Of a stretch of DNA of 64,000 bases, positions 4,265 to 57,704 are shown piece by piece. The notes under the pieces were generated by a model that saw nothing but the letters and a program-made list of their open reading frames with translations, made no database searches and had not been told where the DNA came from. Both the position numbers and the translations under genes were made by a program. The stretch comes from Patescibacteria group bacterium. Its GTDB lineage: Bacteria > Patescibacteriota > Minisyncoccia > Phycocordibacterales > UBA9973. Each line of letters opens with the position of its first letter. The first letter of the stretch is position 1. Location of the stretch: NCBI GenBank assembly GCA_040390725.1, contig JAZJXT010000004.1, forward strand, positions 30,026 to 94,025, in the 5' to 3' direction.

Positions 4265-4267
4265 TTG

Positions 4268-9181: not shown

Positions 9182-9230
9182 AGTATTACATGAAGTCTAC
9201 TTTTTTTGCAAATTTATTTTAAAAATTCAT

Positions 9231-19635: not shown

Positions 19636-19813
19636 GATATTGACTTTGTCTTTAAATGATGTAATCTTTTGATAGATTTGTCCGTTTTCCTCTTTGAATC
19701 AAATTTAGCATTTTGGCACTTTTATATTTATTAAAAGGTTCTAAAATGCTGAATTTGATTATCTTTACAATAGAGTAGAGAGTCATAGGAGGTAAACTTT
19801 AAAAATTAAATAG

Positions 19814-32852: not shown

Positions 32853-32880
32853 CAACTAGTTTTAAATAAAATAAAAAAAA

Positions 32881-32920
32881 GGGAGCAAACTTTGTTGTTT
32901 GTTCCCTTTTTGATTTTTTG
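32881..32920 (+). terminator. Rho-independent terminator after rpmA
   Basis: GGGAGCAAAC-TTTGTT-GTTTGTTCCC hairpin followed by TTTTTGATTTTTT. Confidence 0.6.
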
Positions 32921-32921
32921 G

Positions 32922-33149
32922 TTAGTGGCTTTTTCCACATCCATTATCGTGCATTCCATATGGATCAAGCTTTGTTTCTTCTTGTTTGAAGCAAAATTTG
33001 CAATATGGTTTTGCTACTAGTCTGGACTTATCCAAACTTTCCTCTTGTCTTGGGTAAACCCATTCGTGTTTACCTGTCGATGATTTTTTACACTCTTTCA
33101 TTTCGAAGAACAATTTTATACATGCGCCTGTTTTGGGACATAAACGCAA
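32922..33149 (-). CDS. Possible small Cys-rich protein (75 aa); uncertain
   Basis: Six Cys including a CKFC pair. A hairpin sits immediately upstream with no room for a separate promoter, so this may be spurious. Confidence 0.2.
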   Translation of the reverse strand: MRLCPKTGACIKLFFEMKECKKSSTGKHEWVYPRQEESLDKSRLVAKPYCKFCFKQEETKLDPYGMHDNGCGKSH

Positions 33150-33178
33150 AACCCCTTCTCAAACTTGAGAAGGGGTTA
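33141..33178 (-). terminator. Hairpin terminator/attenuator downstream of the TrpR-like gene (minus strand)
   Basis: AACCCCTTCTCAA-ACT-TGAGAAGGGGTT perfect 13-bp stem with a weak U-run on the minus strand (TTTTGCGTTT). Confidence 0.4.
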
Positions 33179-33228
33179 ATTTTATATTTTAGTTAAGATT
33201 TTCTTTTTTGTGTTTTTAAAATAGAATA

Positions 33229-37462: not shown

Positions 37463-39163
37463 TTATTCTACCTTAAAATACTCAGGGGTATTTATAGACA
37501 TCCAGTCCAATAGTTCACGCATTATGTATGGTGCGCCGACGCCATTGGTCGAAGGACCCGCCTCCATCATTATAGTAAAAGCATATTTTGGATTTTGATA
37601 CGGGAAAAAACCCATGACCCAAGAGTTCACTTTATTTTTGGCGAGCCCGAGCTGGGCGGTACCGGTCTTTGAAGCGACTTGAACATAAGGCACATTTAGA
37701 GCGACAGATGTACCTTCCAAGACTCCGCGACGCATTCCCTCTTGCACTACATTAAAATATTCCTGTTTCAAATCTATTTTTGAAACTTGCAACTCTTTTG
37801 CAGTATCACCTGAAATAAAATGTGGCATAACTAACGTACCCCTATTGGCAATCACGGAAACTGCTCGCACCATCTGAAGAGGAGTGACCTGGAAACCATA
37901 CTGTCCGATGGCCGTGTGATATGTGTCTCCGATGCGCCAATCATCTCCTTTAAATTTAGTTGCTTTCCATTCCGGGCTCGGTATCGTGCCCCCTGCTTCG
38001 TCCGGCAGATCAACTCCTGTTTTTTCTCCAATGCCAAAAAGTTTCGCATATTTTTCTATATTTAATATGCCCAACCCTTTTTGCCCCTGGAATCCTCCGC
38101 CTATTTCATAAAAATAAACGTCTGAAGACACAGCTATGGCTTGCCTCATGTCCACCCAACCGTGTGCTTTCCAATCTTTAAAAACTGTTTTTTGATCAGG
38201 AAAATATGGATTCGGAATTGAAATAGATCCAGTTGAAAGTATTTTAGTTAATGGATCAATCACTCCTTCGTTCAAAGCACCTAATGCAAAAAATGGCTTC
38301 ACGATAGATCCCGGCGTATAAAGACCGGAAAGAGTTCTATCCATAAAAACTTTTCTTTTGTCAGTAAAATATCCTTTTATTTTTTGACTATCTTTTCCTT
38401 GTGAAAGAATTTCTGAATCATACTCCGGGAAACTCACCGAAGATATCACTTCACCCGTCCTAACATCGATGATAACACCGGCCCCACCCTTGAAAGAATT
38501 ACTATCTGAAAGTTGTTGAATTAAATTAAATAATTGCATTTGAATGCGTGAATCCACAGTAGTCACCAGGTCTTCCCCGCGCTTTGGAGCATTTACCACA
38601 TTTTCTGATTGGATTTTTTTATGAGCATCAGTCTCTACTATTTTTAAACCATTTTGACCTTTTATTTTATCACCATATTCTTTTTCTAAACCATCCTTGC
38701 CGATGAATTCCCCTTGCCAATAATTTCCTGTTTTATCCTTGGCAGGATAACTAACGTAACCCAGCAAGTGTGAGAGCCCCGGAGTCAGATACGAGCGAAC
38801 AGAAAAATCTTGCCCCTCTTCTTTTTTATTCCAAGCCAATTCTTTTTTATTTCTATCATAGATAATACCTCTATCAGCGAAAATAATTTGTTTATTCAAA
38901 GTATTATTCTGGCTGCGCACATAATTCGTCTCGCCATGAGCTATTTGCAAATAGCCGAGCCTGGCACCAAATATTCCAAAAATAAAAACAAAAAAAGTTC
39001 CTAAGAATAAAATAGTTTTCTTTGTAATTGGTTTTTCGATTCTCCCTTCAAATTGCTGACTATCGAAATTCTGCAAATTTTTTGAATCCAGAAAAATCTC
39101 ATCCGGCTCTACGAAAAAGTGTGCATTTTTTATTTTATTTTTTCTCAATATTTTTCTAATCAT
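37463..39163 (-). CDS. mrdA: Penicillin-binding protein 2 (class B transpeptidase)
   Basis: N-terminal TM; SxxK motif PGSIVKPF, SxN region and KTG motif SKTGTAQ. Confidence 0.85.
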   Translation of the reverse strand: MIRKILRKNKIKNAHFFVEPDEIFLDSKNLQNFDSQQFEGRIEKPITKKTILFLGTFFVFIFGIFGARLGYLQIAHGETNYVRSQNNTLNKQIIFADRGIIYDRNKKELAWNKKEEGQDFSVRSYLTPGLSHLLGYVSYPAKDKTGNYWQGEFIGKDGLEKEYGDKIKGQNGLKIVETDAHKKIQSENVVNAPKRGEDLVTTVDSRIQMQLFNLIQQLSDSNSFKGGAGVIIDVRTGEVISSVSFPEYDSEILSQGKDSQKIKGYFTDKRKVFMDRTLSGLYTPGSIVKPFFALGALNEGVIDPLTKILSTGSISIPNPYFPDQKTVFKDWKAHGWVDMRQAIAVSSDVYFYEIGGGFQGQKGLGILNIEKYAKLFGIGEKTGVDLPDEAGGTIPSPEWKATKFKGDDWRIGDTYHTAIGQYGFQVTPLQMVRAVSVIANRGTLVMPHFISGDTAKELQVSKIDLKQEYFNVVQEGMRRGVLEGTSVALNVPYVQVASKTGTAQLGLAKNKVNSWVMGFFPYQNPKYAFTIMMEAGPSTNGVGAPYIMRELLDWMSINTPEYFKVE

Positions 39164-39447
39164 AGATTATTTTGCTCCGGATAAAACTTAAGCTTCTTTT
39201 TCATGAATTCTATCAATACAAAAACCAAAATGGACGCGATAAAAATTATAAATAAAACATTTGAAAATCTAGCTTCTCTCACTCCATAAAGCAAGTCTGG
39301 CAATAACAATAAGCCCACACCTTCAATAAAAAATGAAAAATAAACCATGCAAATAAAGGCCAAAATAGAAGACACCCAAAAAGGCATAAATAATACTGAA
39401 AATAATAAAACACAAAAAGCTATAATTCTTAAAAATCTCTTCCCCAT
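39160..39447 (-). CDS. Small polytopic membrane protein, possibly MreD-like
   Basis: 95 aa, three TM helices. Overlaps the PBP2 start by 4 nt in the usual mreD-mrdA position. Assignment by context only. Confidence 0.3.
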   Translation of the reverse strand: MGKRFLRIIAFCVLLFSVLFMPFWVSSILAFICMVYFSFFIEGVGLLLLPDLLYGVREARFSNVLFIIFIASILVFVLIEFMKKKLKFYPEQNNL

Positions 39448-39482
39448 AACACCATATTACACCCTATATGAAAAAATACAAA

Positions 39483-40340
39483 TTAAAAAACTAAACGCAA
39501 GGCATATCGTAAAATAAAGAAAATAATGATGCTTGAAATACCATAAAATAAAGGCTTATTGCCGAAAATAATAGAGCCTAGATTTAAGAAAAAAAGCTCT
39601 GCGTACTTGAGCGGTTTCAATAATTTATTGTTACCTATTTTTATGTCCGAGGGCATTTTTGTACTTTCCTGTTTATCCAGAGATGCAATTTCTGCTTTTA
39701 CTTCTTGTTGTTTATTCTCTGAAGCAACATCAACATTTTGCCTGACTCCTTCCATAAAACCAACAGCGGAATTTACAGAATTTTTTATTACGTCTGGTGT
39801 CTTGCTAGTTATTGAATTTTCAATATTCTGAAAAGTCTTAGATACAACATTATCAACAATGCCATTTGAACCAGCTAAGTCTGCTCCAGCACCCAAAGTA
39901 TTACTTTGTGGAATTATTTTTTTCGCCACTGTGCTTTCGCTTTTTTCCGTTTCATTTTCTGAAAGATAGACATCTTCGTACTTCCCTGTGGAAATTAAAA
40001 ATTTGGCATTTTCAATTTTAGCAAATATTTGATGGCTCCCCACTGTCACCGTCCAATCAATAGAAATATCTTTTACTCCTTTAGACTGTACAATAAAATT
40101 TTTCTTGCCTAAAAAAATAGTATTATCAAAAAAACTTACCGTACCGGAAAGCTCTCTTGTGTCCGGATTGAAAACCAAGGTATAAATTTTTATCTTATCC
40201 CCTTCTTCAAAGGGATCTTTGGAGTACCAAATATTTGAAGGAATAAATCCTGCATTAGTAGATGCATTTATTTTATAAACTGGAAAAAAGGAAAATATTA
40301 AAAACAATATAATCCAAAATTTTTTTACTGATTGTCGCAT
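39483..40340 (-). CDS. Hypothetical secreted/membrane protein (285 aa)
   Basis: N-terminal signal/TM segment and a C-terminal hydrophobic segment. Not recognisably MreC. Confidence 0.4.
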   Translation of the reverse strand: MRQSVKKFWIILFLIFSFFPVYKINASTNAGFIPSNIWYSKDPFEEGDKIKIYTLVFNPDTRELSGTVSFFDNTIFLGKKNFIVQSKGVKDISIDWTVTVGSHQIFAKIENAKFLISTGKYEDVYLSENETEKSESTVAKKIIPQSNTLGAGADLAGSNGIVDNVVSKTFQNIENSITSKTPDVIKNSVNSAVGFMEGVRQNVDVASENKQQEVKAEIASLDKQESTKMPSDIKIGNNKLLKPLKYAELFFLNLGSIIFGNKPLFYGISSIIIFFILRYALRLVF

Positions 40341-40352
40341 TTATTTATTTTA

Positions 40353-41735
40353 TCACAAAATGGCAATTTTATCCGCAAGACCGATATAATTTTCCGGTGT
40401 GAACTTTTCAAGTTCTAATTTTACTTTTGAAGATACATTTAATTTTTCTATGAAGTTTTCAAAATCTTTCATTGTAATAACTTTTCCACGAGTAAGTTCT
40501 TTTAATGCTTCGTACGGCACAGGGTAATTTTCTCTCCGCAGTACTGTCTGTATTGCTTCTGCGATTACTTCCGAATGCGCATTTAGGTCAGCTTTTATTC
40601 TTTCTTCATTTACTGCTATTTTACTCAAACCTTTTTCCAAAGATAAATATGCCAAATACGAATGCCCAAATGCTGTGCCGAAACTTCGCAAGACTGTGGA
40701 ATCAGAAAGGTCTCTTTGCAATCTAGAGATAGGTAATTTACGAGAGAAAAATTCAAATAAAGCATTTGCGATACCTATGTTCCCCTCGCTATTTTCAAAA
40801 TCAATCGGATTTATTTTATGAGGCATCGTGCTCGAGCCCACTTCGCCGGCTTTTGGTTTTTGAGTTATATAATGATCACTGATATATCTCCACATATCTT
40901 GATTGAAATCCAAAAGAATATTATTTATTCTTTTCATATTGTCAGAAAGTTCAGCGTAAGTATCGTGTGGTTCTATTTGAGTAGTTATTAAATTCACTTC
41001 GAGTGTCGTGCCGGAAACTTTGCTCAAATGCGCAATATATTTTTTGGAAAAACTCAACCAATCAATTTTGGGATATGCGGAAACAAATGCATTATAGTTC
41101 CCCGTTGCACCATTTAATTTCGCTAAAACTTTAAAATTTTTCAGCATTTCTAATTGTCTGTTTAAACGACTTTCAAAAACCGCAAATTCTTTACCTAAAG
41201 TAGTAGGACTGGCACTTTGCCCGTGAGTACGAGAAAGCATTGAGAGTTTTGCATAAGTTTTTGCATAATTTTTTAAAGTTTTTTCTATATTTGAAATTTC
41301 CGGAATTATTACATCTTTCAATGCGCCGGATAACATCAAAGCATAACTGCAATTATTTGTATCCTCAGAAGTTAAACCAAAATGCACCCATTCCAAAACA
41401 TTTTTTAGACTATCATTTTTTAAATTTTCTTTTATAAAATACTCTACGGCTTTTACATCGTGATTTGTCGTAGCTTCAAATTTTTTAATTTGTTCGTAAT
41501 CTTTTTGGTCAAAATTCTCATATAAAGCGCGCAATTGTTTTGTTTCAGTAGAATTAAATGCTCTCAAATTAGTATTTTTAGATGCTGACAAGAATATCAA
41601 AAACTCGCATTCCATCATCACTCGATATTTCATTAACGCTTCCTCACTAAAATAAGGCGCAAGCGCCCGAGTTTTTTCAAAATATCTTCCGTCCAATGGA
41701 TTTATAGCGTCATTTATCATAGATATATTATACAC
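40353..41735 (-). CDS. purB: Adenylosuccinate lyase
   Basis: INPLDGRY N-terminal motif and fumarate-lyase signature region (GSSTMPHKINP). The track start is GTG; an ATG lies 5 codons downstream. Confidence 0.9.
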   Translation of the reverse strand: MYNISMINDAINPLDGRYFEKTRALAPYFSEEALMKYRVMMECEFLIFLSASKNTNLRAFNSTETKQLRALYENFDQKDYEQIKKFEATTNHDVKAVEYFIKENLKNDSLKNVLEWVHFGLTSEDTNNCSYALMLSGALKDVIIPEISNIEKTLKNYAKTYAKLSMLSRTHGQSASPTTLGKEFAVFESRLNRQLEMLKNFKVLAKLNGATGNYNAFVSAYPKIDWLSFSKKYIAHLSKVSGTTLEVNLITTQIEPHDTYAELSDNMKRINNILLDFNQDMWRYISDHYITQKPKAGEVGSSTMPHKINPIDFENSEGNIGIANALFEFFSRKLPISRLQRDLSDSTVLRSFGTAFGHSYLAYLSLEKGLSKIAVNEERIKADLNAHSEVIAEAIQTVLRRENYPVPYEALKELTRGKVITMKDFENFIEKLNVSSKVKLELEKFTPENYIGLADKIAIL

Positions 41736-42031
41736 CTTTTTAGTATTTACTCCAAATTCTACGTTAGGTCTTGCCTAACGCAAGCTTTAATTCCCTATGA
41801 ACCCCCGAATAATTTACTCCGGAACTCAATAAGATGGGGGAAGAGTTTTTGAAAAATCTCAACTCTTGCCCCCGATTTCTTTTTTCTAGTTCTGCTCCTA
41901 GAAGGCTCGCCATTATTCTAAATTAGGTCCTTCCTAATTTGAACATACGGTGACAAAATACATTTTTTTTTACTTTAGCTTGCAAAGCAAACTAGCGAAG
42001 AAAAATGAAAAACTCCTGAATGTAAAATTCT

Positions 42032-42349
42032 TTAGGAAACTACAGGTTCATCCATAAGAATCTCCATTAGCTCATTCAGTGGTCGGTAAAGGTAATTTTT
42101 TCTTACCGTGACTCCTTGAGTTATAAACTCAACCACTCCCCCATACGACATTCCTCGTTTTTCATCTCTGCCGTAGTTTATTGCCTGAACCTCAAGCAAC
42201 AATGGTTCTGTTCGTGGACCACCAACATCTAAACAAAAATACCTGTGGCCAGAAATGCCACTGATGCTTTTTACTAAATCTAGCATCGAGATTTTTGTCC
42301 TACTAATAAGCCTACCCTTAGGTAGCTCTAAATGATTTGCATTTGCCAT
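42032..42349 (-). CDS. Hypothetical protein (105 aa)
   Basis: Clean ORF with SD GAGGGA 6 nt upstream, its own strong promoter and a structured leader. No recognisable domain. Confidence 0.4.
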   Translation of the reverse strand: MANANHLELPKGRLISRTKISMLDLVKSISGISGHRYFCLDVGGPRTEPLLLEVQAINYGRDEKRGMSYGGVVEFITQGVTVRKNYLYRPLNELMEILMDEPVVS

Positions 42350-42461
42350 ATTAATCCCTCATTAAAATTAGTTTCGTGAGGGGTATTTACGCACAAAATT
42401 TATGCACAAATACCCCCACAAAAATAGAAAATTGATGAGAAAAAACACTTTATTTACAAAG

Positions 42462-42491
42462 AAAAGTCCGAGGTAAGTATAGCACAGTCTT
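42462..42491 (-). promoter_or_regulatory. Sigma70-like promoter (TTGACA-N18-TATACT) on the minus strand
   Basis: The minus strand reads TTGACAaatggcataagactgtgcTATACT. It lies ~100 nt upstream of the 42349 start codon. Confidence 0.4.
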
Positions 42492-42518
42492 ATGCCATTT
42501 GTCAATAGCGATTTTTAT

Positions 42519-43337
42519 TTAATCAAGTTCTGCAATTATCTTGTTTTTATTAAGTATTTTAGAAAACTGAACCCAGAGAAATAAAAAAATACCTACGACA
42601 AAATAAGAAATTAATGTTCCCCACCAAATGCCATATAAGGGGAAAACTACCCCGGCGGTAAATCCATAAAGAATCAAACCAATAGCCCCCGGAAAGAAAA
42701 ATGATTTACATATTGACGGTATTACTTTTTTACCGTGGGCAAAATAATATATAAAAAGAGCAGTTGAGTTCGATGCGGGGAAATTTGCAAAAATTCCGCC
42801 CCAAGCATTGCCGAACAATTTAGCGAGAATTACTGTCGTAGCTATGACGCTTCCCGCTAGAAATGAACGAAGTAATATATGTTTTATATTAAAATCTACG
42901 GGGGTAATTTCTGTCTCTTGGGGCAATTTACGAATTAAAAAATAACATACAACAAAAAATGGTATACCGATAATTAATGCTTGCAAAAAAGTGCTCGGGG
43001 TAAAAGTAAGAATTAGAAATGTGCAAAAACCCCAAATGACAAAAGACAATATAGCTCCCAAAATAAAATTTCTCTTCTGAGAGAAGAAAGCGAAAACTAA
43101 AACAAAAATATAAAAAGATATTAGCAGTCCAGCTGTTGCTGTGACGACTGCTTGCGATACATCCATAGGACTTTTAGTCAGACCTATAAAGAAAAGACTG
43201 ACTGCGAGAGTAGTCGGAATTGTAAGTACTATTCCGCGATATTTTAATGAGACTCTTTCGGCAATTAATGTTATTAACCCAATAAGAAAACCTCCGACAA
43301 TAAATGAAACTATAACCTGTAAGACAAATAGATTCAT
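42519..43337 (-). CDS. Polytopic integral membrane protein (about 8 TM helices), unknown function
   Basis: 272 aa, almost entirely hydrophobic helices. No transporter signature recognised. Confidence 0.5.
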   Translation of the reverse strand: MNLFVLQVIVSFIVGGFLIGLITLIAERVSLKYRGIVLTIPTTLAVSLFFIGLTKSPMDVSQAVVTATAGLLISFYIFVLVFAFFSQKRNFILGAILSFVIWGFCTFLILTFTPSTFLQALIIGIPFFVVCYFLIRKLPQETEITPVDFNIKHILLRSFLAGSVIATTVILAKLFGNAWGGIFANFPASNSTALFIYYFAHGKKVIPSICKSFFFPGAIGLILYGFTAGVVFPLYGIWWGTLISYFVVGIFLFLWVQFSKILNKNKIIAELD

Positions 43338-44152
43338 TTTTGTAATTTTTTTAACTTTACTGATTTTTTAACTCTTTTCTTTGATTCTTTGATATGTGAA
43401 ACTTTTGGCAAATTTTCCGGCATTGTGCCACCGAGATTTTTTATGGTGTTTCGAACTTTTTCACCGACTTGTTTATGCGCCATATTTGCATTATCCTGAC
43501 CTTGGGTATTTTCTCGTTTTAATTTTGCTTCTGTTTGCGTAGCTCTAAATAAATTCGCGGCAAGTTCCTCGCTGTTCATATGATCTAAAATTAAATCTTT
43601 TTCTTTTAGTCCTTTTTTATTTTTAATATCTTTTTGACGCATTCCGCCGTAAAGCCCCATATATCCGAAGTCTTGAAAATTGGCGTAGTTGGTCACGCCG
43701 GATTTTTTGGCGACGCTTGCCAGATTTTTATTATGCTCTTTCATTTCACCGCGCAAGAAAATTCTTTTTTGATCTTCAACTAAATTATCTTGCGTTTCTT
43801 GGCGATGAGTTTGAATTGCGAAATATGTTTGAGCTTTTGCAATTTCGACTTTTCTCGGGTCGCCATTTTGTGCTATGAGATAGCAAGCGTAGCGGGAAAG
43901 GTGATAGTCTTCTATAATTTGACCATTTATTTCTCCATATTGGTTGCGGGATTTTTGGGGTTCGCTCACGCCGGCGAAATGCTCATTTATATTTGCACCG
44001 CTATTTTTACACGCTTCTTTTGCTCTTTCTATTGCTCGCAAAAATTTACCATATTCCGTATATCCCAGAATTTTATATAAATCACGAGCGCTCCAATATT
44101 CATATCCATGCTCGTTTATTTTTTTAATTTTTTCAAAAAGATTTTCTTTCAC
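43334..44152 (-). CDS. DinD / Bro-N-domain-like protein (phage antirepressor-like) with basic C-terminal tail
   Basis: HGYEYWSARDLYKILGYTEYGKFLRAIERAKEACKNSG matches the Bro-N/DinD pattern. Lys-rich C-terminus. Confidence 0.5.
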   Translation of the reverse strand: MKENLFEKIKKINEHGYEYWSARDLYKILGYTEYGKFLRAIERAKEACKNSGANINEHFAGVSEPQKSRNQYGEINGQIIEDYHLSRYACYLIAQNGDPRKVEIAKAQTYFAIQTHRQETQDNLVEDQKRIFLRGEMKEHNKNLASVAKKSGVTNYANFQDFGYMGLYGGMRQKDIKNKKGLKEKDLILDHMNSEELAANLFRATQTEAKLKRENTQGQDNANMAHKQVGEKVRNTIKNLGGTMPENLPKVSHIKESKKRVKKSVKLKKLQK

Positions 44153-44183
44153 TAATTCATTATAGCATAATTATTATCATTCA

Positions 44184-45137
44184 TTATTCCAAATTCTTTT
44201 TTATTCTTTCCAGGACAGGAGTATTGAAATCGTGTTCGAAAGTTTTGCCTGTGATTGTCTCATAAATTTCAATATATCGGCGGGAAAGTTCGGCTATTAG
44301 GTCGGCTGGAGCTTCTGGTAAAACAGCATCTTTGTATGGGTCAGAATGTTCTTTGAACCATAGGCGAATAAATTCTTTGTCAAAATATTCCGGCTCTTGT
44401 CCTGCATTAAATCTTTCATCATAACTCCCCGCTTTCCAATATCTGGAAGAATCCGGAGTATGTATTTCATCAATCAATATCAAATTGCCGAATTCATCAA
44501 TGCCGAATTCGTATTTTGTATCGACTAAAATAAGTCCGCGCTGTAAAGCTATTTCCTGTCCGCGCGCAAATAATGCCAAAGAATATTTTTCAACTTGATC
44601 AAAAAGTTCTTTCGTGATAAATCCTTCGGCAATCATTTCGTCTTTGGTTAAAGTCCTGTCGTGTAAATCTTCTTTTGTCGTCGGGTCGAAAATAGCTTGC
44701 GGAAGTTTTTGATTTTTCTTCATACTATCAGGCAAGACTACGCTGCCAAAAGTTCTGATGCCTTTCGAATAACGAGTCCAAATGGAAGTATCCGTCACAC
44801 CGGTTAAGTATCCACGCACGACGCCTTCTATTTTTAATGGCGCACATTTCTTGCCGACGGTTACATTGGGGTCAGGCACAGCGACGACGTGGTTTGGAAT
44901 AATGTCTCTTGTTTGCTCAAACCAAAAATTACTGATTTGATTTAACACTTCGCCCTTGAAAGGAATATTTGCTAATACTCTGTCAAAACCGGTCAATCTA
45001 TCGGTAGTTATCAAAATAATCTGATGCGGTTCTGTGTAAATATCACGCACTTTGCCGGCTTTTTTTTGACCCAAATGTTTAAAATCTGTTTCTGTTAATA
45101 CGTCATTCAAATGCTTTTTAATAAGCTCTATATCCAT
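44184..45137 (-). CDS. purC: Phosphoribosylaminoimidazole-succinocarboxamide synthase (long form)
   Basis: SAICAR synthetase motifs: GKVRDIY, LITTDRLTGFD. 317 aa. Confidence 0.85.
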   Translation of the reverse strand: MDIELIKKHLNDVLTETDFKHLGQKKAGKVRDIYTEPHQIILITTDRLTGFDRVLANIPFKGEVLNQISNFWFEQTRDIIPNHVVAVPDPNVTVGKKCAPLKIEGVVRGYLTGVTDTSIWTRYSKGIRTFGSVVLPDSMKKNQKLPQAIFDPTTKEDLHDRTLTKDEMIAEGFITKELFDQVEKYSLALFARGQEIALQRGLILVDTKYEFGIDEFGNLILIDEIHTPDSSRYWKAGSYDERFNAGQEPEYFDKEFIRLWFKEHSDPYKDAVLPEAPADLIAELSRRYIEIYETITGKTFEHDFNTPVLERIKKNLE

Positions 45138-45140
45138 AAT

Positions 45141-46217
45141 TTATTTCAAGATTACTTTTCTATTTCCCTTTTTAATTTTTCCTATCCAGAAAATTTTATC
45201 TGATCCTAGAATTTCTTCAATTTTATTTTTTTCTTTTGGCGAGACAATTATCGTGAGACCGATACCCATATTAAAAACTCTATACATTTCTTGCTCAGAA
45301 ACTTTACCTGCTTGTTGCATATAAGAAAAAATAGGAAGCATAGGCCAGGAACCTTTCATTATTTCCGCATTCACATTTTTCGGCAACACGCGCGGAATAT
45401 TTTCCAAAAGTCCACCACCGGTGATGTGCGCTATGCCTTTTATTTCTACACCTTTATCTAAAAGAGAAAATACGGGCTTGCAATAATTCACATGAACATT
45501 TAATAAAACATCCCCGATAGTTTTACCAGTTAATTTACCTTTGCTTTTTACTGTATGATTTGCCATTTCAAAAAGAATTTTTCTAGCTAAAGAATAACCA
45601 TTAGTATGTAAACCACTAGAAGGAAAACCTAAGACAATATCACCGACTTTTATTTTTTCACCGGTAATTATTTGATCTTTTTCTACAACTCCCGTAATAA
45701 CTCCGGCTATATCGTGCTCGCCTTTTGTGTAAACACCCGGTAATTCTGCCGTCTCGCCACCTATTAATGCTACGCCGGCTTCCTTGCAAGCTTTAGCCAT
45801 GCCTTTTACCATAGCTTCCATAACTTTCGGGTCCAGTTTTTCGTGAGCTACATAATCTAAAAAAGTTATAGGTTTTGCGCCCATAGCTAAAACATCATTG
45901 CAAGAGTGGTTCACCATATCCTCACCAACAGTATCATATTTATTCATCAACTTGGCGATAGAAAGCTTTGTGCCTACGCTATCGATACTTTGAACCAAAA
46001 CAGGATTTTTGTAATTTTTTACAATTTCTCCCAAATCATAAAGTCCACCGAAACTGCCGATACCTGTCAGTACAGCTTTTGTATGAGTAGAAGCCACAGA
46101 TTTTTTAATTCTCTTTACGACTTCATTGCCGGCATTTATATTTACTCCTGATTTTGAGTACAAATCTTTCTTGCTTTTAGTATTAGTTTTTTTAGCTTTA
46201 CTTTTTTCTTTCTTCAT
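45141..46217 (-). CDS. purM: Phosphoribosylformylglycinamidine cyclo-ligase (AIR synthetase)
   Basis: PurM N- and C-domains: GIGSFGGLYDL, DMVNHSCNDVLAMGAKP. Lys-rich N-terminal extension. Confidence 0.9.
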   Translation of the reverse strand: MKKEKSKAKKTNTKSKKDLYSKSGVNINAGNEVVKRIKKSVASTHTKAVLTGIGSFGGLYDLGEIVKNYKNPVLVQSIDSVGTKLSIAKLMNKYDTVGEDMVNHSCNDVLAMGAKPITFLDYVAHEKLDPKVMEAMVKGMAKACKEAGVALIGGETAELPGVYTKGEHDIAGVITGVVEKDQIITGEKIKVGDIVLGFPSSGLHTNGYSLARKILFEMANHTVKSKGKLTGKTIGDVLLNVHVNYCKPVFSLLDKGVEIKGIAHITGGGLLENIPRVLPKNVNAEIMKGSWPMLPIFSYMQQAGKVSEQEMYRVFNMGIGLTIIVSPKEKNKIEEILGSDKIFWIGKIKKGNRKVILK

Positions 46218-46224
46218 ATTATTT

Positions 46225-46743
46225 TTATTTTTGATCTAAATATTTTTTAATACCCAAAATTGATAACTTTTTACCTTTTTCTTCAACTTCAATACTCATC
46301 TTTTTTTTGTAAGCAATTAATTTTTTTTCTAAATTTTTGTCAGAGAGTGAAAGTATTTGTACCGCTAAAATACCGGCATTCTTTGCAGCATTTACACCGA
46401 CAGTAGCTACGGGCACGCCCGGAGGCATACCGACAGTAGAAAGTAGTGAATCAAGTCCGTCTAGATTTTTAGCGCTCACTGGCACACCGATAACAGGCAA
46501 AGTGGTAAGTGCTGCAGTCACTCCGGCTAGATGCGCTGCGCCTCCTGCACCGGCAATAATAGTCTTTAAGCCTCTTTTTATGGCAGTAGTAGCGTATTTA
46601 TGTACTAAATCAGGCGCTCTATGAGCTGAGGCTACTGTTATTTCATAAGGTATACCAAATTCTTCAAAGACTTTTACAGCTTCAGCCATTACAGCCAAAT
46701 CTGAATCCGAACCCATAATAATGCCAACTGATATTTTTTTCAT
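46225..46743 (-). CDS. purE: N5-carboxyaminoimidazole ribonucleotide mutase
   Basis: VGIIMGSDSDLAVM ... ASAHRAP ... AGGAAHLAGV are hallmark PurE motifs. Confidence 0.9.
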   Translation of the reverse strand: MKKISVGIIMGSDSDLAVMAEAVKVFEEFGIPYEITVASAHRAPDLVHKYATTAIKRGLKTIIAGAGGAAHLAGVTAALTTLPVIGVPVSAKNLDGLDSLLSTVGMPPGVPVATVGVNAAKNAGILAVQILSLSDKNLEKKLIAYKKKMSIEVEEKGKKLSILGIKKYLDQK

Positions 46744-46825
46744 ATTTCTATTATATCAAAAGAAAATTAAAAAACAAAAGGGCTGTCATACGACTGCCCT
46801 TATCTATCTTTTTGAGGGGAATTAA

Positions 46826-47023
46826 TTATTTCCCCTCAAAGTCTTCTCTGGGATTACCATCAGGGTAATCACTTACATCAGGAATGTAGCTGATGCCCAA
46901 ATATCGGAGACCAACTTCTCCGATATCCTGAAGTGCGGCCTGCAGGCCGGCCAATTGATCATCTTGAGGACTAATTCTATCCCGAAGACCATCTCTATAC
47001 TTGTTTTGGTGTTGCTTTCCCAT
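46826..47023 (-). CDS. Small GC-rich ORF (65 aa) or structured sRNA between purN/D and purE
   Basis: The ORF is preceded by TTGCAA-N17-TATATT on the minus strand and followed by a perfect hairpin and a terminator. Codon usage (ctg, gcc, ggc, ctc, agc, ccc) is atypical for this AT-rich genome. Coding status uncertain. Confidence 0.3.
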   Translation of the reverse strand: MGKQHQNKYRDGLRDRISPQDDQLAGLQAALQDIGEVGLRYLGISYIPDVSDYPDGNPREDFEGK

Positions 47024-47088
47024 ACTATATATAAAAAAAATGTGAACAATTTATAGAACTTTTACGTGAGCAATATATCACAATTAAA

Positions 47089-48990
47089 TTATTTTTGCAA
47101 TAGCAATGCTTTTTTACCTATATCTCGCCTATACTGCATACCTTCAAATGATATTTTTTTGATAGCTTCATATGCCGTGTTCAAAGCTTCTTGTAATGTA
47201 TCACCAATAGCAGATACTCCCAGCACTCGCCCACCGTTGGTGACTAAATTATTATTTTCCATTTTTGTACCGGCGTGAAAAACAACAACGTTTTTATTTT
47301 CTTCCGCTTCTTTAACTTCAAAAATAATTTTCCCTTTTTCATAATCCCCCGGATATCCGGCTGAAGCTATTGCAATATTACAGGCAAATAAATCTTTCCA
47401 TTTTATTTCCATTTGATTTAATTTTTTATCAACACAAGCATTTATTATTTCCAATAAATCACTATCAAGCAAACGCATATAGCTTTGTGTTTCAGGATCG
47501 CCAAAACGAGAATTAAATTCAATTATTTTCGGTCCGTCTTCTGTGATAATAATTCCAGGGAAAATTATTCCTTCAAATAATGCACCTTCATCACGCATGC
47601 CCTTTAATACCGGCGCGATAATTTCTTTTTCAATTCTATTTTTCATTTCTTCATTTATAAATGGCAATGGAGCAATTGTTCCCATGCCTCCTGTATTTAA
47701 CCCTGTATCATTTTCACCAATTCTTTTGTGGTCTTGCGACAATGGAAACATCGAATAAGTTTCACCGTCTGATAATGCATGCACAGAAATTTCAATTCCC
47801 GTAAGGAATTCTTCTATGACTATTTCCCTGCCTGATTCACCAAAAACTTTTTTAATAAAAATATCTTGCAAGGCTTTTTCAGCTTCTTCTTTATTTAAAC
47901 AAATCAAAACACCCTTACCAAAAGCTAGTCCATCCACTTTTATGACTACTGGAAATTTTTGCGTATTTAAATACTCCAGTGCCTTATCGTAGTCATCAAA
48001 ACTTTCCCATCGTGCTGTAGGTAAATTATGCCTCTTCATAAAATCTTTTGCATAAACTTTTGACCATTCAAGTTTTGCCGCCATTTTTGTCGGCCCCCAA
48101 ATACGTAAATTCTCTTTCTTAAATTCATCCACTACACCAAGCGCCAAAGGGTCATCAGGCACAGCTAAAGTCAAATCTATTTTTTCTTTTTTTACAAAAT
48201 CAATAAGCCCAGCTATGTCTGTGGCTTTAATATCAATATTTACACCTATTTCAGCCGTACCGGCATTCCCCGGAGCAAAATAAATCTCACCCGCCAAAGG
48301 CGACTGCGCTATTTTCCATCCGATAGCGTGTTCCCTGCCGCCAGACCCTATTATTAAAATTTTCTGCTTACTGATTTCGCATAATTTTTCTAAAACTTCC
48401 ACGTAAAGCTTATTTTCTTTTCTTTTTAATCTTGAGTATAAAGAAATAACATTATCGTTTTCTTCAGCTTTCTCATATACTCTACCAAGAACTGGCCCAA
48501 AGTCGAAGTTTAAAGTCAAAAAATGTATTGAAGAGCCGGCATAAGTTGATCTTTTATCCAAAACATTTTGTATCGCCTTTTCGGTCAGCATTCCTTTATT
48601 CCAAAGTGACTCTGTGCCGTCAGGATTTTTAAATACTCCATCCTCAGCATCTGGAATAATTCCCGGATGTAAATTTATAATTTTATTCGGATACCCAGTA
48701 ATAACTTCATCTAAAATTATTTTTTTCCAACCGCATAAACAAATAAAATCAGGATTTAATTTTTGTAAAAGCGGTAAGAGATTTTCTTTCTCCGCGCAAA
48801 TTTCAATTTTTAAATTGTGCCTTTTTGCATGCTCTAACCCCAAAGCTTTTTCGGTATCGGAAACTACCGCGCAAATCTCCGCATTTATTTTACCTTGTTC
48901 TATGCCTTCTATTATGGCCTGCAAATTTGTGCCTGTACCGGTGTCAGAAATCAAAACAGCTAATTTTATTTTATTCTTTTGGGACATCAT
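47089..48990 (-). CDS. purND: Bifunctional phosphoribosylglycinamide formyltransferase / phosphoribosylamine--glycine ligase (PurN-PurD fusion)
   Basis: N-terminal ~200 aa is PurN-like (KLAVLISDTGTGTNLQAII ... LHPG). The remainder is a PurD ATP-grasp (KILIIGSGGREHAIGWKIAQSP ... GAGTAEIG). One continuous 633-aa frame. Confidence 0.85.
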   Translation of the reverse strand: MMSQKNKIKLAVLISDTGTGTNLQAIIEGIEQGKINAEICAVVSDTEKALGLEHAKRHNLKIEICAEKENLLPLLQKLNPDFICLCGWKKIILDEVITGYPNKIINLHPGIIPDAEDGVFKNPDGTESLWNKGMLTEKAIQNVLDKRSTYAGSSIHFLTLNFDFGPVLGRVYEKAEENDNVISLYSRLKRKENKLYVEVLEKLCEISKQKILIIGSGGREHAIGWKIAQSPLAGEIYFAPGNAGTAEIGVNIDIKATDIAGLIDFVKKEKIDLTLAVPDDPLALGVVDEFKKENLRIWGPTKMAAKLEWSKVYAKDFMKRHNLPTARWESFDDYDKALEYLNTQKFPVVIKVDGLAFGKGVLICLNKEEAEKALQDIFIKKVFGESGREIVIEEFLTGIEISVHALSDGETYSMFPLSQDHKRIGENDTGLNTGGMGTIAPLPFINEEMKNRIEKEIIAPVLKGMRDEGALFEGIIFPGIIITEDGPKIIEFNSRFGDPETQSYMRLLDSDLLEIINACVDKKLNQMEIKWKDLFACNIAIASAGYPGDYEKGKIIFEVKEAEENKNVVVFHAGTKMENNNLVTNGGRVLGVSAIGDTLQEALNTAYEAIKKISFEGMQYRRDIGKKALLLQK

Positions 48991-52087: not shown

Positions 52088-54268
52088 TTATTCTAAAAGA
52101 TTCTTAAGAACATCCTCGGGTACTTCGCGAACTTTTGGTGCTGGCGGAGGTGTCGGCGTGGGCGTTGGTCCTGATATTGGTCTTGGTGTCGGCTCAGGCA
52201 CTGATTCAGTTTTCTCGGAAATCAAATCTTTTAATTTATTCATTTCATCAATACTTGCTGAGCGGTCGCCATGTAAAATGACAGGTGGTTGAGAAATTTT
52301 TAAATCACTCAAAGACATAGGTGGAGGTGTCGGCTTTTCTACTATTGAAATAGCCTCGGGTGAAATAGAATTCGATTCAGAAATTTTATTTTCTGATAAA
52401 GTTTTATTTAAAATATCTCGAAGCGCTAAATTTTCTTTTCTAGGCTCTTTTTTAAATATAACAGGTTTTGCAAATGGAGTCTTTATAGAAAAATTTGGCA
52501 AAAGTTTAGAAATATTTTTTAAAGGTGAAGATACTGACGGCTTTATGGTTGGTCTTACCGGTGGTCTAATATTTTTATCAAAAGTTTTTTTAATTTCTAA
52601 AAATGGACTAGGCTTCTTTGGGGCTTGAGGGGCTTTAACCGGTGAAGCATTAACCGATACAGACCTCTCGGTATTTGTAGGAGCGCCTTGATTGCCACCG
52701 CCACCTTGACTCTTGTTTTCAAATTCAATACCTAAATCCGCCAATGGTCTGTAAAATTTTGTTTCATCTTGCTTGATTTGATTCATGGATCCCGAAAGAG
52801 GCTTCAATTCACCTGACTTCATTTTTGCTATACAATCCTTGCAATACACGGGCCTGCCTGGCTGCGGCATAAATGGTACAAAAGTTTCTTTTTTACAAAT
52901 AGAACAAACTGCGGGGAATTTTTCCATACTGCCAGAATCATTGTCGCCACCTACCATCATGCCACTCCAATTATTTATTTCCCTTTCTACTTCTTCTCTG
53001 GATCTGCAATACAAAGCGCGAGAAGACCTGATAACTTCTTCTTCTATTTCTTTAATGCCTGACTTCACCAAGGGTGGCAAAGTCTTTGCAGAAAATGGCC
53101 GGCTCGTAATACCGCCTATCATTAATTTTAAATAAATTCTATAGTTCGGTAAGTTCACGATATCTTGCGGAATAAATTCCGGCTCAAATTCTTTTTCCAA
53201 AAATTCCGCATCATCGGCGCCGACACGAAATACAATCATGGTACCCACGTTACCGAAAACAGAGTCGCGCACATTTGTACTTTCTTTAGTGACAAGCTGA
53301 GCAGTGTATTGGTGAGCAACTGTTAAATTAAGACGATATTTTCGAGCCTCGGAAAGAATAGATGCGAAAGAATCTGTAACGAAATTTTGGAATTCGTCCA
53401 CGTAAAGATAAAAATCTTTACGCTCTTCTTCAGGAATACGAACGCGCTCCATCGCCGCCAGCTGAATCTTTGTAATAATCATACCTCCGAGTAATGCAGA
53501 GTTATCTTCACCGATACGCCCCTTGGAAACATTCACTAGAAAAATCTTTCCTTCATTCATAACATCAAAAACATTTATTGTGCTTTTTGATTGGCCTACA
53601 ACATTTCGAATTATAGAAGTTGAAAGAAATTGTCCGACTTTATTTTGAATCGGAGCAATAGCTTCATTTCTAAATTTATCCTGCCAAGCTTCATATTCAT
53701 GAATCCAAAAAGCCTTGATGACGGGATCTTTTAAATTACTAATTATTTTTTGACGATAATCTTTATCCACTAGCATTCTGGGTATTCCCAAAAGAGTGGT
53801 ATTTGGGGTGTCGAGCAATGCTAAAATAGCGTTGTTCAAAATATATTCCATTCTCGCAGACCAAGCATTCGCCCAAATTTTTGTAAATATTCCCATGAGA
53901 CCGGAAGCCACCAAATGTTTATATTTTGGATCAAGTAATTCCAAAACATTAAAACCAATATGATAATCAACATCTGCAGGATTAAAATAAACAACGTCTT
54001 TCATGCGGTGCGGAGGAATAGCCGAAAGAATACTTTCTACGAGTTCTCCGTGAGGGTCAACCACACAAACACCATCACCATTTATGACATTTTGAATAAC
54101 CATATTGAACATCAAGACAGATTTACCGGTACCGGATTTACCGAGCAGATACATATGCTGGCGCCTGTCTTTTCGCTTGATACCGAAAAGAGTTTTTTTG
54201 TCGCGATAGGTCGTCTGACCTATATATGTCATATCCTTATTGGCTGGTAAATCTTTAAATTCCATCAA
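52088..54268 (-). CDS. P-loop NTPase of the HerA/FtsK/TraD-VirD4 superfamily with C-terminal zinc ribbon and long Pro/Ser-rich low-complexity tail
   Basis: Walker A HMYLLGKSGTGKS, Walker B YLYVDEFQNF, zinc ribbon CSICKK...CKDC, then ~250 aa of PxP-rich tail. No N-terminal TM. Exact family not resolvable by eye. Confidence 0.45.
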   Translation of the reverse strand: MMEFKDLPANKDMTYIGQTTYRDKKTLFGIKRKDRRQHMYLLGKSGTGKSVLMFNMVIQNVINGDGVCVVDPHGELVESILSAIPPHRMKDVVYFNPADVDYHIGFNVLELLDPKYKHLVASGLMGIFTKIWANAWSARMEYILNNAILALLDTPNTTLLGIPRMLVDKDYRQKIISNLKDPVIKAFWIHEYEAWQDKFRNEAIAPIQNKVGQFLSTSIIRNVVGQSKSTINVFDVMNEGKIFLVNVSKGRIGEDNSALLGGMIITKIQLAAMERVRIPEEERKDFYLYVDEFQNFVTDSFASILSEARKYRLNLTVAHQYTAQLVTKESTNVRDSVFGNVGTMIVFRVGADDAEFLEKEFEPEFIPQDIVNLPNYRIYLKLMIGGITSRPFSAKTLPPLVKSGIKEIEEEVIRSSRALYCRSREEVEREINNWSGMMVGGDNDSGSMEKFPAVCSICKKETFVPFMPQPGRPVYCKDCIAKMKSGELKPLSGSMNQIKQDETKFYRPLADLGIEFENKSQGGGGNQGAPTNTERSVSVNASPVKAPQAPKKPSPFLEIKKTFDKNIRPPVRPTIKPSVSSPLKNISKLLPNFSIKTPFAKPVIFKKEPRKENLALRDILNKTLSENKISESNSISPEAISIVEKPTPPPMSLSDLKISQPPVILHGDRSASIDEMNKLKDLISEKTESVPEPTPRPISGPTPTPTPPPAPKVREVPEDVLKNLLE

Positions 54269-57454: not shown

Positions 57455-57460
57455 GACTTA

Positions 57461-57495
57461 ATTATATACAAACCTAAATACTTTTGCAAGTATTT
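57461..57495 (-). promoter_or_regulatory. Promoter TTGCAA-N17-TATAAT (minus strand) whose -35 is embedded in a perfect 8+4+8 palindrome AAATACTTTTGCAAGTATTT (candidate operator)
   Basis: The minus strand reads TTGCAAaagtatttaggtttgtaTATAATtaagtcATG. Palindrome at 57476-57495. A second 5-bp inverted repeat ATACT...AGTAT follows at ~57509-57530. Confidence 0.4.
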
Positions 57496-57569
57496 CGCGA
57501 CCGCAGAATACTTGTCAAAAAGAGTATATATTATGGGGTATGGGTATGTCAACAGTTTTCCACAAGAGC

Positions 57570-57599
57570 TTGCAAACGTCTTAACGTTTATGATATACT
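57570..57599 (+). promoter_or_regulatory. Promoter-like TTGCAA-N18-TATACT on plus strand upstream of a GC-rich structured segment
   Basis: TTGCAA at 57570-57575 and TATACT at 57594-57599. The spacer contains the palindrome AACGT-CTTA-ACGTT. Confidence 0.3.
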
Positions 57600-57605
57600 A
57601 CATCT

Positions 57606-57700
57606 ACTGAAAGGCGGAAAATCGGAGTGCCGCCGGCCCACGTGGCTATGGAGGGAAGTTCCGTCCTCCCAGAGAAAAACACCCGCAAGGGTGTTTTTCT
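57606..57700 (+). ncRNA. Candidate small structured RNA (~95 nt), GC-rich, ending in a bidirectional terminator
   Basis: Hairpins GGCGG(aaaatcggagtg)CCGCC and GGAGG(gaagttccgt)CCTCC, the palindrome CCACGTGG, then ACACCC-GCAA-GGGTGT-TTTTTCT. Strongly GC-enriched relative to flanks. The 86-aa ORF drawn over it is probably spurious. Confidence 0.3.
57675..57700. terminator. Bidirectional rho-independent terminator
   Basis: The ACACCC GCAA GGGTGT hairpin has a U/T-run on both strands (TTTTTCT on plus; TTTTTCTCT on minus, downstream of the 57705..58112 stop). Confidence 0.5.
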
Positions 57701-57704
57701 ATTT

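Follow-up and report, generated by a model that had tools for sequence, protein, structure and literature searches.

A purC-purB interval in a Patescibacteria pur operon that is probably a layered composite of three independent pieces

The interval between purC and purB in this Patescibacteria pur operon is probably a layered composite of three independent pieces. These are a tandem DUF3147 membrane protein gene, a DinD family gene and a 783-nt block with a 105-aa ORF, and they all lie on the minus strand of the window, by which we mean the whole 64,000-nt stretch of DNA that was analysed. Gene identities, synteny, junction sequences, promoter motifs and the absence of homologues were read directly, and from these we infer the order in which the pieces arrived. 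The upstream flank is purC (SAICAR synthetase, 44184..45137; SAICAR_synt 230 bits, NF009251 425 bits) and the downstream flank is purB (adenylosuccinate lyase, 40353..41735; NF006764 640 bits). As the original prediction had described, purM, purE, a fused purN/D, purF and purQ are found in collinear order upstream of purC. Its three ORFs, 43334-44152 (272 aa), 42519-43337 (272 aa) and 42032-42349 (105 aa), are also present, with a 4-nt overlap (ATGA) between the first two and a 296-nt gap before purB. What did not hold was the idea that they constitute one three-gene insertion or module, as the pieces are unrelated and the DUF3147 gene occupies the same site without DinD in a related lineage represented by two contigs (L073 and L074). 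The distance from purC to purB is 29-31 nt in two comparators (L004 and L005), versus 2.4 kb here. The interval is expanded relative to other genomes, as had been supposed, but the DUF3147 gene was already resident in L073 and L074. At the purC-purB junction of a Nomurabacteria contig that is about as distant as L073 (L002), we observed a Cas2-like/PaaX_M gene on the opposite strand. An exact-protein look-up for strain variants of the locus returned no match for purC and only the source contig for DinD.

The ORF at 42519..43337 encodes a polytopic membrane protein with two stretches that match the GlpM-like Pfam family DUF3147 (PF11345; 42.9 bits against a gathering cutoff of 23.6, and 54.3 bits for the L073 orthologue). 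Its AF2 model (pLDDT 94) is all-helical with about eight hydrophobic spans, in agreement with the earlier description. In L073 and L074 the gene order is purL-Q-F-N-D-E-M-C-DUF3147-purB-PBP2, without DinD and without the orphan ORF. The L073 DUF3147 gene overlaps purC by 4 nt and ends 19 nt before purB, and its junction with purC reads 'cttaaATGAatatt', the same ATGAAT junction that joins DinD to DUF3147 in the window. Between the window and L073, DUF3147 is 63% identical, which matches the flanking pur genes (65-74%), and PBP2 is 67% identical. After L073, the closest DUF3147 homologue has 55% identity and is located elsewhere. Of the three ORFs, the DUF3147 gene is the only one found in core synteny in relatives, and its sequence context indicates that it is a pur-operon resident in this lineage. 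It would have joined the pur cluster before the split from the L073/L074 lineage and would have been retained there, coupled translationally to the upstream gene.

The tandem DUF3147 protein has 35 homologues, one of which carries the JGI label 'GlpM family'. When 80 other DUF3147 loci were inspected, DinD was next to DUF3147 in none of them, and pur genes adjoined DUF3147 only in the window and in L073 and L074. The placement of DUF3147 in a pur cluster was thus seen in a single related lineage. Elsewhere its neighbours included DnaJ (six times), ArsP (five times), MFS (three times) and dCTP deaminase (twice), and no recurrent partner was found among 109 neighbouring ORFs from about 35 loci. 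As these neighbours are heterogeneous, nothing links the family to purines generally. The window protein resembles the small GlpM-type membrane proteins of Pfam DUF3147 in being all-helical and polytopic with two DUF3147 stretches, but it is a fused tandem of ~265 aa that is mostly found in Patescibacteria-type metagenome contigs. BLASTP detected no similarity between its two halves that would indicate an internal duplication, no related solved structure was found by sequence or fold, and a literature search on DUF3147 found no publication. Our best guess, and a weak one, is that it would transport small molecules, or form a channel for them, and be co-expressed with the late steps of purine biosynthesis. 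As a secondary reading, the retention of tandem DUF3147 in the pur clusters of two lineages may point to a purine-linked transporter whose fold has no solved relative.

In the window, DinD (43334..44152) is located at the junction of purC and DUF3147. The heptamer AATGAAT is found at the purC stop (44179..44185), directly 5' of the DinD start (44155-44161) and at the DinD stop, where TGA overlaps the DUF3147 start ATG AAT (Met-Asn; 43332..43338). Among the 20 copies on both strands of the 64 kb, 11 are on the minus strand and three of these coincide with DinD boundaries, but this count is post hoc and concerns a short motif in AT-rich DNA. The purC TAA stop is followed by an in-frame TGA that is overlapped by an ATG, and this sequence resembles what would be left of an ancestral ATGA overlap between purC and DUF3147. 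We propose that a single DinD gene would later have landed exactly where the purC stop overlapped the DUF3147 start, and that this would have duplicated the AATGAAT junction. As the DinD stop overlaps the DUF3147 start, DinD would have taken over the translational coupling that purC formerly provided. Alternatively, DUF3147 may have been inserted independently, or DinD may have been lost in L073.

An extended -10 promoter motif (TGcTATAAT, 44159..44167) is found 6 nt 5' of the DinD GTG. In the window, -10-like hexamers are enriched at exactly this 6-nt spacer (12 of 63 ORFs, nine of them with TG, against a background of ~1.3 per offset). DinD would be expressed from this leaderless promoter of its own, and the predicted transcript spans DinD and DUF3147. 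Here and throughout the locus, transcription is predicted and promoters and terminators are consensus matches.

The expected Bro-N identity of the DinD ORF was borne out. Residues 9-111 match Bro-N (PF02498, 41.3 bits; cutoff 25.6), a helical C-terminal domain follows, and residues 3-267 align to positions 10-279 of 288 in the DinD equivalog model NF008573 (335.8 bits; cutoff 242). The protein also matches phrog_8036 (304 bits), the PADLOC PDC-S13 model PDLC04919 (348 bits, E 8e-105, residues 3-267) and PDLC03083 (269 bits, residues 1-259), which describes a DinD-like module at the N-terminus of some Type I R-M specificity subunits. More than 8000 homologues were found. The closest are 84-85% identical in protein and 79-81% in DNA and occur in unrelated contexts, and DinD is absent from L073, L002, L004 and L005. 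Full-length copies occur in 42 phage/satellite records, including Streptococcus satellite phages, and in 30 records of a plasmid collection. DinD-bearing contigs have no gene besides DinD in common with the window, and the flanks of eight copies revealed no conserved cassette boundary, with only the ORF in common and nothing beyond. Judged by these sequence comparisons, DinD appears to be an accessory, horizontally mobile gene that was acquired recently here. Its identity across phyla is 67-75%, a high conservation that could stem from strong constraint or from transfer.

In many bacteria, DinD has the behaviour of an accessory gene, or a candidate defence gene, that stands alone. In three other contigs (L157, L159 and L164) it is found between ABC-ATPase and MacB-permease genes, the same single-gene placement in MacAB-like operons of other Patescibacteria. 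In two further Patescibacteria contigs (L162 and L163) a DinD homologue is part of an AbiE / ParE / Type III R-M island. PADLOC PDC-S13 is a single-gene candidate, and the neighbours of the window copy are purC, DUF3147 and purB rather than a defence island. PDC systems are candidates that were proposed from co-localisation and are not known to have been demonstrated by experiment, and our literature search on PDC-S13 found no paper. Similar to phage 'morons' and free-standing selfish genes, the window DinD consists of one ORF and a promoter of its own, sits co-directionally between linked genes and destroys neither. Unlike these, DinD copies have flanks that are not conserved, no nuclease domain or mobility mechanism was found, and its host is a chromosome.

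The window protein also resembles E. coli DinD (PcsA; NF008573 / PRK11525) in its Bro-N N-terminus and its length of ~270 aa, at ~51-56% identity by tblastn. It differs from the E. coli protein in that its gene lies inside a Patescibacteria pur cluster and is predicted to be leaderless. E. coli DinD is reportedly SOS-induced and is said to antagonise RecA filaments. Near the DinD promoter in the window we found no E. coli-type LexA box, a consensus that may not be the one used by this phylum. A Cheo-type box with one mismatch (44226-44237) is present ~60 nt upstream inside purC, and the window-wide count of such boxes is below chance. With no convincing LexA or Cheo box at the promoter, SOS control of DinD is not evident.

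To our knowledge, DdrC has been described as unique to Deinococcus. The AF2 model of DinD (pLDDT 88.7) matched DdrC from Deinococcus radiodurans (PDB 7qvb, 7udi, 8u0g), a DNA-break-sensing, DNA-compacting homodimer, with a Foldseek probability of 1.00 and an E-value of 1.4e-5 over ~245 columns that include both domains. The model and the published description of DdrC (PMC9303277) appear to have the same order of elements: a beta-hairpin, a winged HTH, a helix, a long linker helix and a C-terminal helical bundle. Both DdrC and DinD are induced by DNA damage in their own model organisms. According to its model, DinD would be a two-domain DNA-binding protein in which a Bro-N/winged-helix N-domain is joined by a long helix to a helical-bundle C-domain. 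We raise, as a tentative idea that may well prove wrong, that the widespread DinD family is a distant structural homologue of DdrC and that in Patescibacteria DinD spreads as a minimal one-gene cassette, gaining a leaderless promoter and landing between co-directional operon genes. Biochemical functions given for any of the three proteins are predictions.

The third piece lies between DUF3147 and purB, where a 783-nt block unique to this lineage is found, versus the 19-nt spacer in L073. We suggest that the block would have entered downstream of DUF3147 and upstream of the conserved leaderless promoter of purB, and that it would comprise a -35/-10 promoter, a leader that sequesters the SD, the 105-aa ORFan and a terminator-like spacer. 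The strong promoter noted previously is present as a sigma-70-type motif (TTGACA-18-TGcTATACT, 42505-42476, 11 of 12 matches), from which the orphan transcript would start at about 42469. It is the best of 27 promoter-like sites in 39000-47000, a number that is no higher than in shuffles. The leader is structured, as had also been proposed. It contains a near-perfect 24-bp hairpin (42372..42423) that is specific to the RNA strand because of its G-U pairs, and its folding z-score is -5.3 to -5.5 on the minus strand versus -2.95 on the plus strand. A predicted outer helix (42355-42442) encloses the hairpin and pairs with the SD GAGGG (42356-42360). Unlike most genes here, the ORFan (42032..42349; 84 aa in the NCBI call) is SD-led, with GAGGG 6 nt before its ATG. 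It had no homologue other than itself among 1.84 billion representative proteins (k-mer-indexed search and full HMMER scan) and none in the phage collection, where the best PHROGs hit was insignificant (phrog_25345, E 0.38). A search of 156 fetched loci, the phage collection and the window for relatives of the 783-nt block recovered only its own hairpin. We consider that the ORFan is probably a genuine gene for a small protein and specific to this lineage, and the block would most likely be a separate transcription unit for a small protein that is young or foreign.

The block could instead be a structured non-coding or regulatory RNA, such as a long purB leader or an sRNA, with a fortuitous 105-codon ORF, although we regard this as unlikely. 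The lack of any homologue of the ORF is consistent with an RNA, as are the strand-specific leader hairpin with its G-U pairs (z -5.5), the folding of the 3' region (z -5.8) and, uncommonly for this genome, a strong promoter that has a leader. By its codon-usage score the ORF ranks at the 16th percentile among segments of real genes, and 5% of spurious ORFs reach the same score, so that the ORF could be non-coding. However, that score also exceeds those of 95% of spurious ORFs, the ORF is preceded by a good SD at a 6-nt distance, and its own region is not unusually structured (z -1.9). At E<=1, Rfam returned only sub-threshold, miRNA-precursor-like noise on the leader hairpin (23-24 bits) and only noise over 38000-48000, and at the gathering score the whole window contained two tRNAs only. 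The 296-nt spacer before purB (41736..42031) folds with z -5.8 and contains seven local stem-loops, one of them a GC-capped 14-bp hairpin (41836-41873) that resembles a terminator and runs into a T-rich tail. Rfam gave no match for the spacer, and no relative of it turned up among the fetched loci, in the phage collection or elsewhere in the window. Most of the window's long intergenic regions have z -4 to -8, so that hairpin-rich spacers are common here and the structure of this gap is not special.

A role of the block as a purB leader is also at odds with the presence of a conserved promoter at purB itself. A TATAAT box (41727..41732) lies 6 nt 5' of an ATG at 41720, and the box is conserved in the alignment with L073 (window 'gtgTATAATatatctATG' vs L073 'cagTATAATtactctATG'). 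The ATG at 41720 is the probable true start of purB (the Logan gene call is 455 aa), and the box is predicted by consensus match to be a leaderless purB promoter. As purB keeps its own TATAAT-6 nt-ATG promoter, insertions upstream of it need not disrupt pur expression.

It seems very improbable to us that the 2.4 kb as a whole derives from one mobile element, such as a prophage, satellite or integrative island, that has since decayed. The presence of DinD homologues on phages and Streptococcus satellite phages would fit such an origin, as would the orphan, which is SD-led and slightly higher in GC (0.41), unlike the leaderless genes of the host, and the foreign gene at the L002 purC-purB junction. 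Against it, the ORFs in 39483-45137 include no integrase, transposase or recombinase, tRNA genes are found only at 4267 and 15517 in the window, and a 64-kb repeat search and a blastn self-search revealed no long direct or inverted repeat, att-like sequence, TSD or MITE-like repeat at the flanks, the only repeat being the 7-nt AATGAAT at the DinD boundaries. Composition does not shift across the interval, the codon usage of DinD and DUF3147 fits that of the genome, with GC/GC3 of 0.355/0.29 for DinD and 0.344/0.27 for DUF3147 vs 0.367/0.305 for the genome's genes, and a GC of 0.406 for the orphan. DUF3147 has diverged together with the pur operon, and the phage collection contains no relative of the orphan block.

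Least probable of all is that DinD and DUF3147 form a two-gene functional module that was inserted as a unit, in which a DNA or phage sensor would work with a membrane effector as in abortive infection. In its favour, DinD matches a candidate defence model, its ORF has a 4-nt overlap with that of DUF3147, and the DinD promoter probably serves both. Synteny largely refutes such a module: DUF3147 is found without DinD at the same site in L073 and L074, coupled to purC, the 4-nt overlap repeats the L073 purC/DUF3147 overlap, DUF3147 has no PADLOC or PHROG match, and PDC-S13 is a single-gene candidate. Neither the orphan nor the membrane protein matched any PADLOC model. Six other DinD contexts were inspected as well, and DUF3147 adjoined DinD in none of them. 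The lack of this pairing in all the other loci examined leaves a joint defence module without support. What remains of the original suggestion of defence is the match of DinD to PDC-S13 and the defence island in one Patescibacteria genome. The analysis lends no support to a defence module placed inside the pur operon.

The composite reading leaves several leads, none of which alters current understanding on its own, and the locus is mildly interesting but mostly ordinary. If the structural link between DinD and DdrC is true, it would provide a mechanistic model, paired DNA-break recognition, for the poorly understood DinD. DUF3147 is a second lead, a membrane protein inherited alongside late purine genes, and the ORFan with its SD-sequestering leader is a further one. 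As each unit has its own predicted leaderless promoter, with TATAAT 6 nt before the start, single genes can drop between biosynthetic genes. The locus thus illustrates how the compact operons of Patescibacteria may take up foreign genes while their function is kept.

The locus belongs to a Patescibacteria (CPR) MAG (NCBI locus tags V4439_), whose minus strand carries purQ, purF, fused purN/D, purE, purM and purC (identified by Pfam), followed by ORF1, ORF2, ORF3, purB, a gene for a secreted or membrane protein of 285 aa, a 95-aa ORF and PBP2. The three ORFs placed between purC and purB by the original prediction are all present, at 43334–44152 (ORF1, DinD), 42519–43337 (ORF2, a tandem DUF3147 membrane protein according to Pfam, sharing an ATGA overlap with ORF1) and 42032–42349 (ORF3, a 105-aa orphan). 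The finding is real, but the interval combines pieces of already known kinds and is not the coherent defence or abortive-infection module that had been proposed as one reading.

The DUF3147 gene is also linked to pur genes in a related lineage. Its closest homologue (P0003, 63% identical) is found on contigs L073 and L074, which carry a full operon in the order purL-Q-F-N-D-E-M-C-DUF3147-purB-PBP2. There, DUF3147 overlaps purC by 4 nt ('cttaaATGAatatt') and ends 19 nt from purB, and the purC-purB interval contains neither DinD nor the orphan. As the flanking genes are 65–74% identical to those in the window, the divergence of DUF3147 keeps pace with that of the pur operon. The second-closest homologue (55% identical) is a GNAT fusion in a NUDIX/HAD gene cluster. 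Among 80 further metagenome DUF3147 loci, none had adjacent pur genes or an adjacent DinD, and their neighbours shared no common theme. The AF2 model of ORF2 is confident (pLDDT 94), with no PDB counterpart by fold or by sequence, and our literature search found no mention of DUF3147. The protein may serve as a membrane transporter or channel that is expressed together with purC and purB. On contig L075, a DUF3147 tandem protein fused to a GNAT acetyltransferase (8001–9308) comes after a serine recombinase and a reverse transcriptase, with three NUDIX, two Exo_endo_phos, inositol-phosphatase, HAD and HD_4 genes downstream of it (to 15862); the set resembles a cassette for nucleotide metabolism carried by a mobile element.

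The purC-purB spacing, which was to be compared in relatives, is 29–31 nt in two other loci (L004 and L005). Candidatus Nomurabacteria RIFCSPHIGHO2_02_FULL_42_19 (L002), about as distant from the window as L073, has an opposite-strand gene for a 181-aa Cas2-like/PaaX_M protein in this interval (2298–2843 (−)). As this is a different gene, the junction repeatedly takes in foreign genes. Separately, a purC 66% identical to that of the window occurs on a 1.1-Mb contig labelled Alphaproteobacteria (L003, 10001–10912), and the ORF after it is not purB, which points to either a purC type that has moved horizontally or an error in the label of the bin.

ORF1 is a true DinD, scoring 336 bits against the NCBIfam equivalog NF008573 (cutoff 242), 348 against the PADLOC candidate defence system PDC-S13, 304 against phrog_8036 and 41 against Bro-N. 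It is the mobile part of the interval. Its nearest relatives are 84–85% identical in protein and 79–81% in DNA, and none of the window's housekeeping genes is as close to its own nearest known relative. In three genomes these relatives sit within a MacAB-like operon, where they separate the ABC ATPase from the MacB/FtsX permeases; others have a PF1765-like gene and DUF1653 on either side, precede a 1603-aa gene that overlaps them, or lie inside an island (AbiEi/AbiEii, Phd/ParE, DinD, Type III R-M). Full-length DinD is also found in 42 phage or satellite records, among them Streptococcus satellite phages and Campylobacter phages, as well as in 30 plasmid-collection records. Different DinD copies share no conserved flanks; only the ORF moves. 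In the window, purC ends in TAA-TGA, with an ATG overlapping that TGA ('ggaaTAATGAATgat'). The heptamer AATGAAT at this purC stop recurs directly 5' of the DinD GTG and again where DinD stops and DUF3147 starts ('caaaAATGAATcta'), so that 3 of its 11 minus-strand copies in the 64 kb are at the insertion boundaries. These copies would fit a DinD that inserted at an ATGA overlap once shared by purC and DUF3147 and thereby duplicated the junction; the repeat is short and AT-rich, and was spotted post hoc.

The AF2 model of DinD (m5e2791cdc0b7, pLDDT 88.7) comprises an N-domain of beta-hairpin plus winged helix, then a helix of 50 residues and a C-domain that is also helical. In the PDB it significantly matches only the six chains of Deinococcus radiodurans DdrC (7qvb, 7udi, 8u0g), aligned by Foldseek over ~245 columns and both domains (probability 1.0, best E 1.4e-5, TM 0.38–0.46); no link was detectable between the sequences. 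According to the abstract of PMC11347143, DdrC is a homodimer, induced by damage, that compacts DNA and binds nicks or breaks in pairs. It is built of a wHTH plus a four-helix bundle, an architecture that the predicted DinD appears to share; no structural homologues of DdrC were known according to the authors who described it (PMC9303277). DinD is mentioned in neither paper. From this fold match, DinD may be a DNA-end or lesion-binding, recombination-modulating protein with a role in stress or phage conflict.

A −10-like hexamer lies exactly 6 nt ahead of the start codon in 12 of the 63 window ORFs (for example at 4434, 5472(−), 9231(−), 10130, 13281, 18619, 25487, 28794, 46743(−) and 57454(−)), with a TG extension in nine, against a background of ~1.3 per offset; SD motifs are rare. 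As boxes at 6 nt are enriched and SD motifs rare, leaderless units seem to be the rule, and extended −10 promoters that yield leaderless mRNAs appear to drive much of this genome's expression. DinD has this geometry (predicted promoter TGcTATAAT, 44167–44159 (−); GTG at 44152), as do purE and the 285-aa gene. The predicted purB promoter (TATAAT, 41732–41727 (−)) would be leaderless if the start is the ATG at 41720, an arrangement that is kept in L073 and fits the 455-aa gene call. With these predicted leaderless promoters, the 'pur operon' would be a string of small units, and the insertions here would not have to be polar.

The orphan departs from this rule. The strong promoter and structured leader ascribed to it were both recovered: TTGACA-18-TGcTATACT at 42505–42476 (11/12 matches), the best of 27 promoter-like sites in 39000–47000 (shuffled sequence gives at least as many), and a 118-nt leader with a 24-bp hairpin (z −5.5), in which the SD GAGGG is paired within a predicted outer helix. 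The 296-nt non-coding gap ahead of purB likewise stands; this hairpin-rich spacer 3' of the orphan folds with z −5.8 and has a terminator-like stem at 41836–41873. No orphan homologues were found in a 5.8-billion-cluster search, in 1.84 billion representatives scanned in full with HMMER, or in phages. In codon usage the orphan resembles a gene weakly: it falls at the 16th percentile of real gene segments, and 5% of spurious ORFs score as well or better. The product is most likely a small protein that is young or of foreign origin.

Spacers rich in hairpins are the general pattern across the window, and none matched an Rfam family. The 345-nt spacer at 46744–47088 (z −5.9) splits the pur cluster between purN/D and purE, compared with only ~40 nt in L073. 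It has bidirectional terminator-like stems, sub-threshold MicX/MicC matches (33 bits; gathering score 75), probably artefacts of the hairpins, and a 65-aa ORF (46826–47023) with no Pfam match. Long intergenic regions at 19636–19813 (+), 32853–33228 and 57455–57704, which fold much better than their shuffled controls (z −8.3, −7.2 and −4.5; no Rfam family), could be unannotated ncRNAs or belong to a genome-wide hairpin-spacer class.

Other features of the gene string also differ from L073. PurN and purD form one 633-aa ORF (47089–48990 (−); Formyl_trans_N plus GARS_N/A/C), whereas in L073 they are separate, overlapping genes. Between purB and PBP2, only ~280 nt apart in L073, the 285-aa gene (39483–40340 (−); signal peptide or TM segment, weak Big_3_5 match) and the 95-aa hydrophobic ORF (39160–39447 (−)) are another lineage-specific addition. 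Elsewhere, a VirD4/TraG-like type IV coupling protein with a treble-clef zinc finger adjoins the dnaK-grpE region, and a second protein has the same zinc-finger domain (52088–54268 (−) and 58738–60435 (−)).

The leads from this locus are a possible relationship between DinD and DdrC, operon-splitting by DinD in CPR genomes, a pur-linked DUF3147 protein, and a leaderless promoter geometry that appears to be genome-wide.
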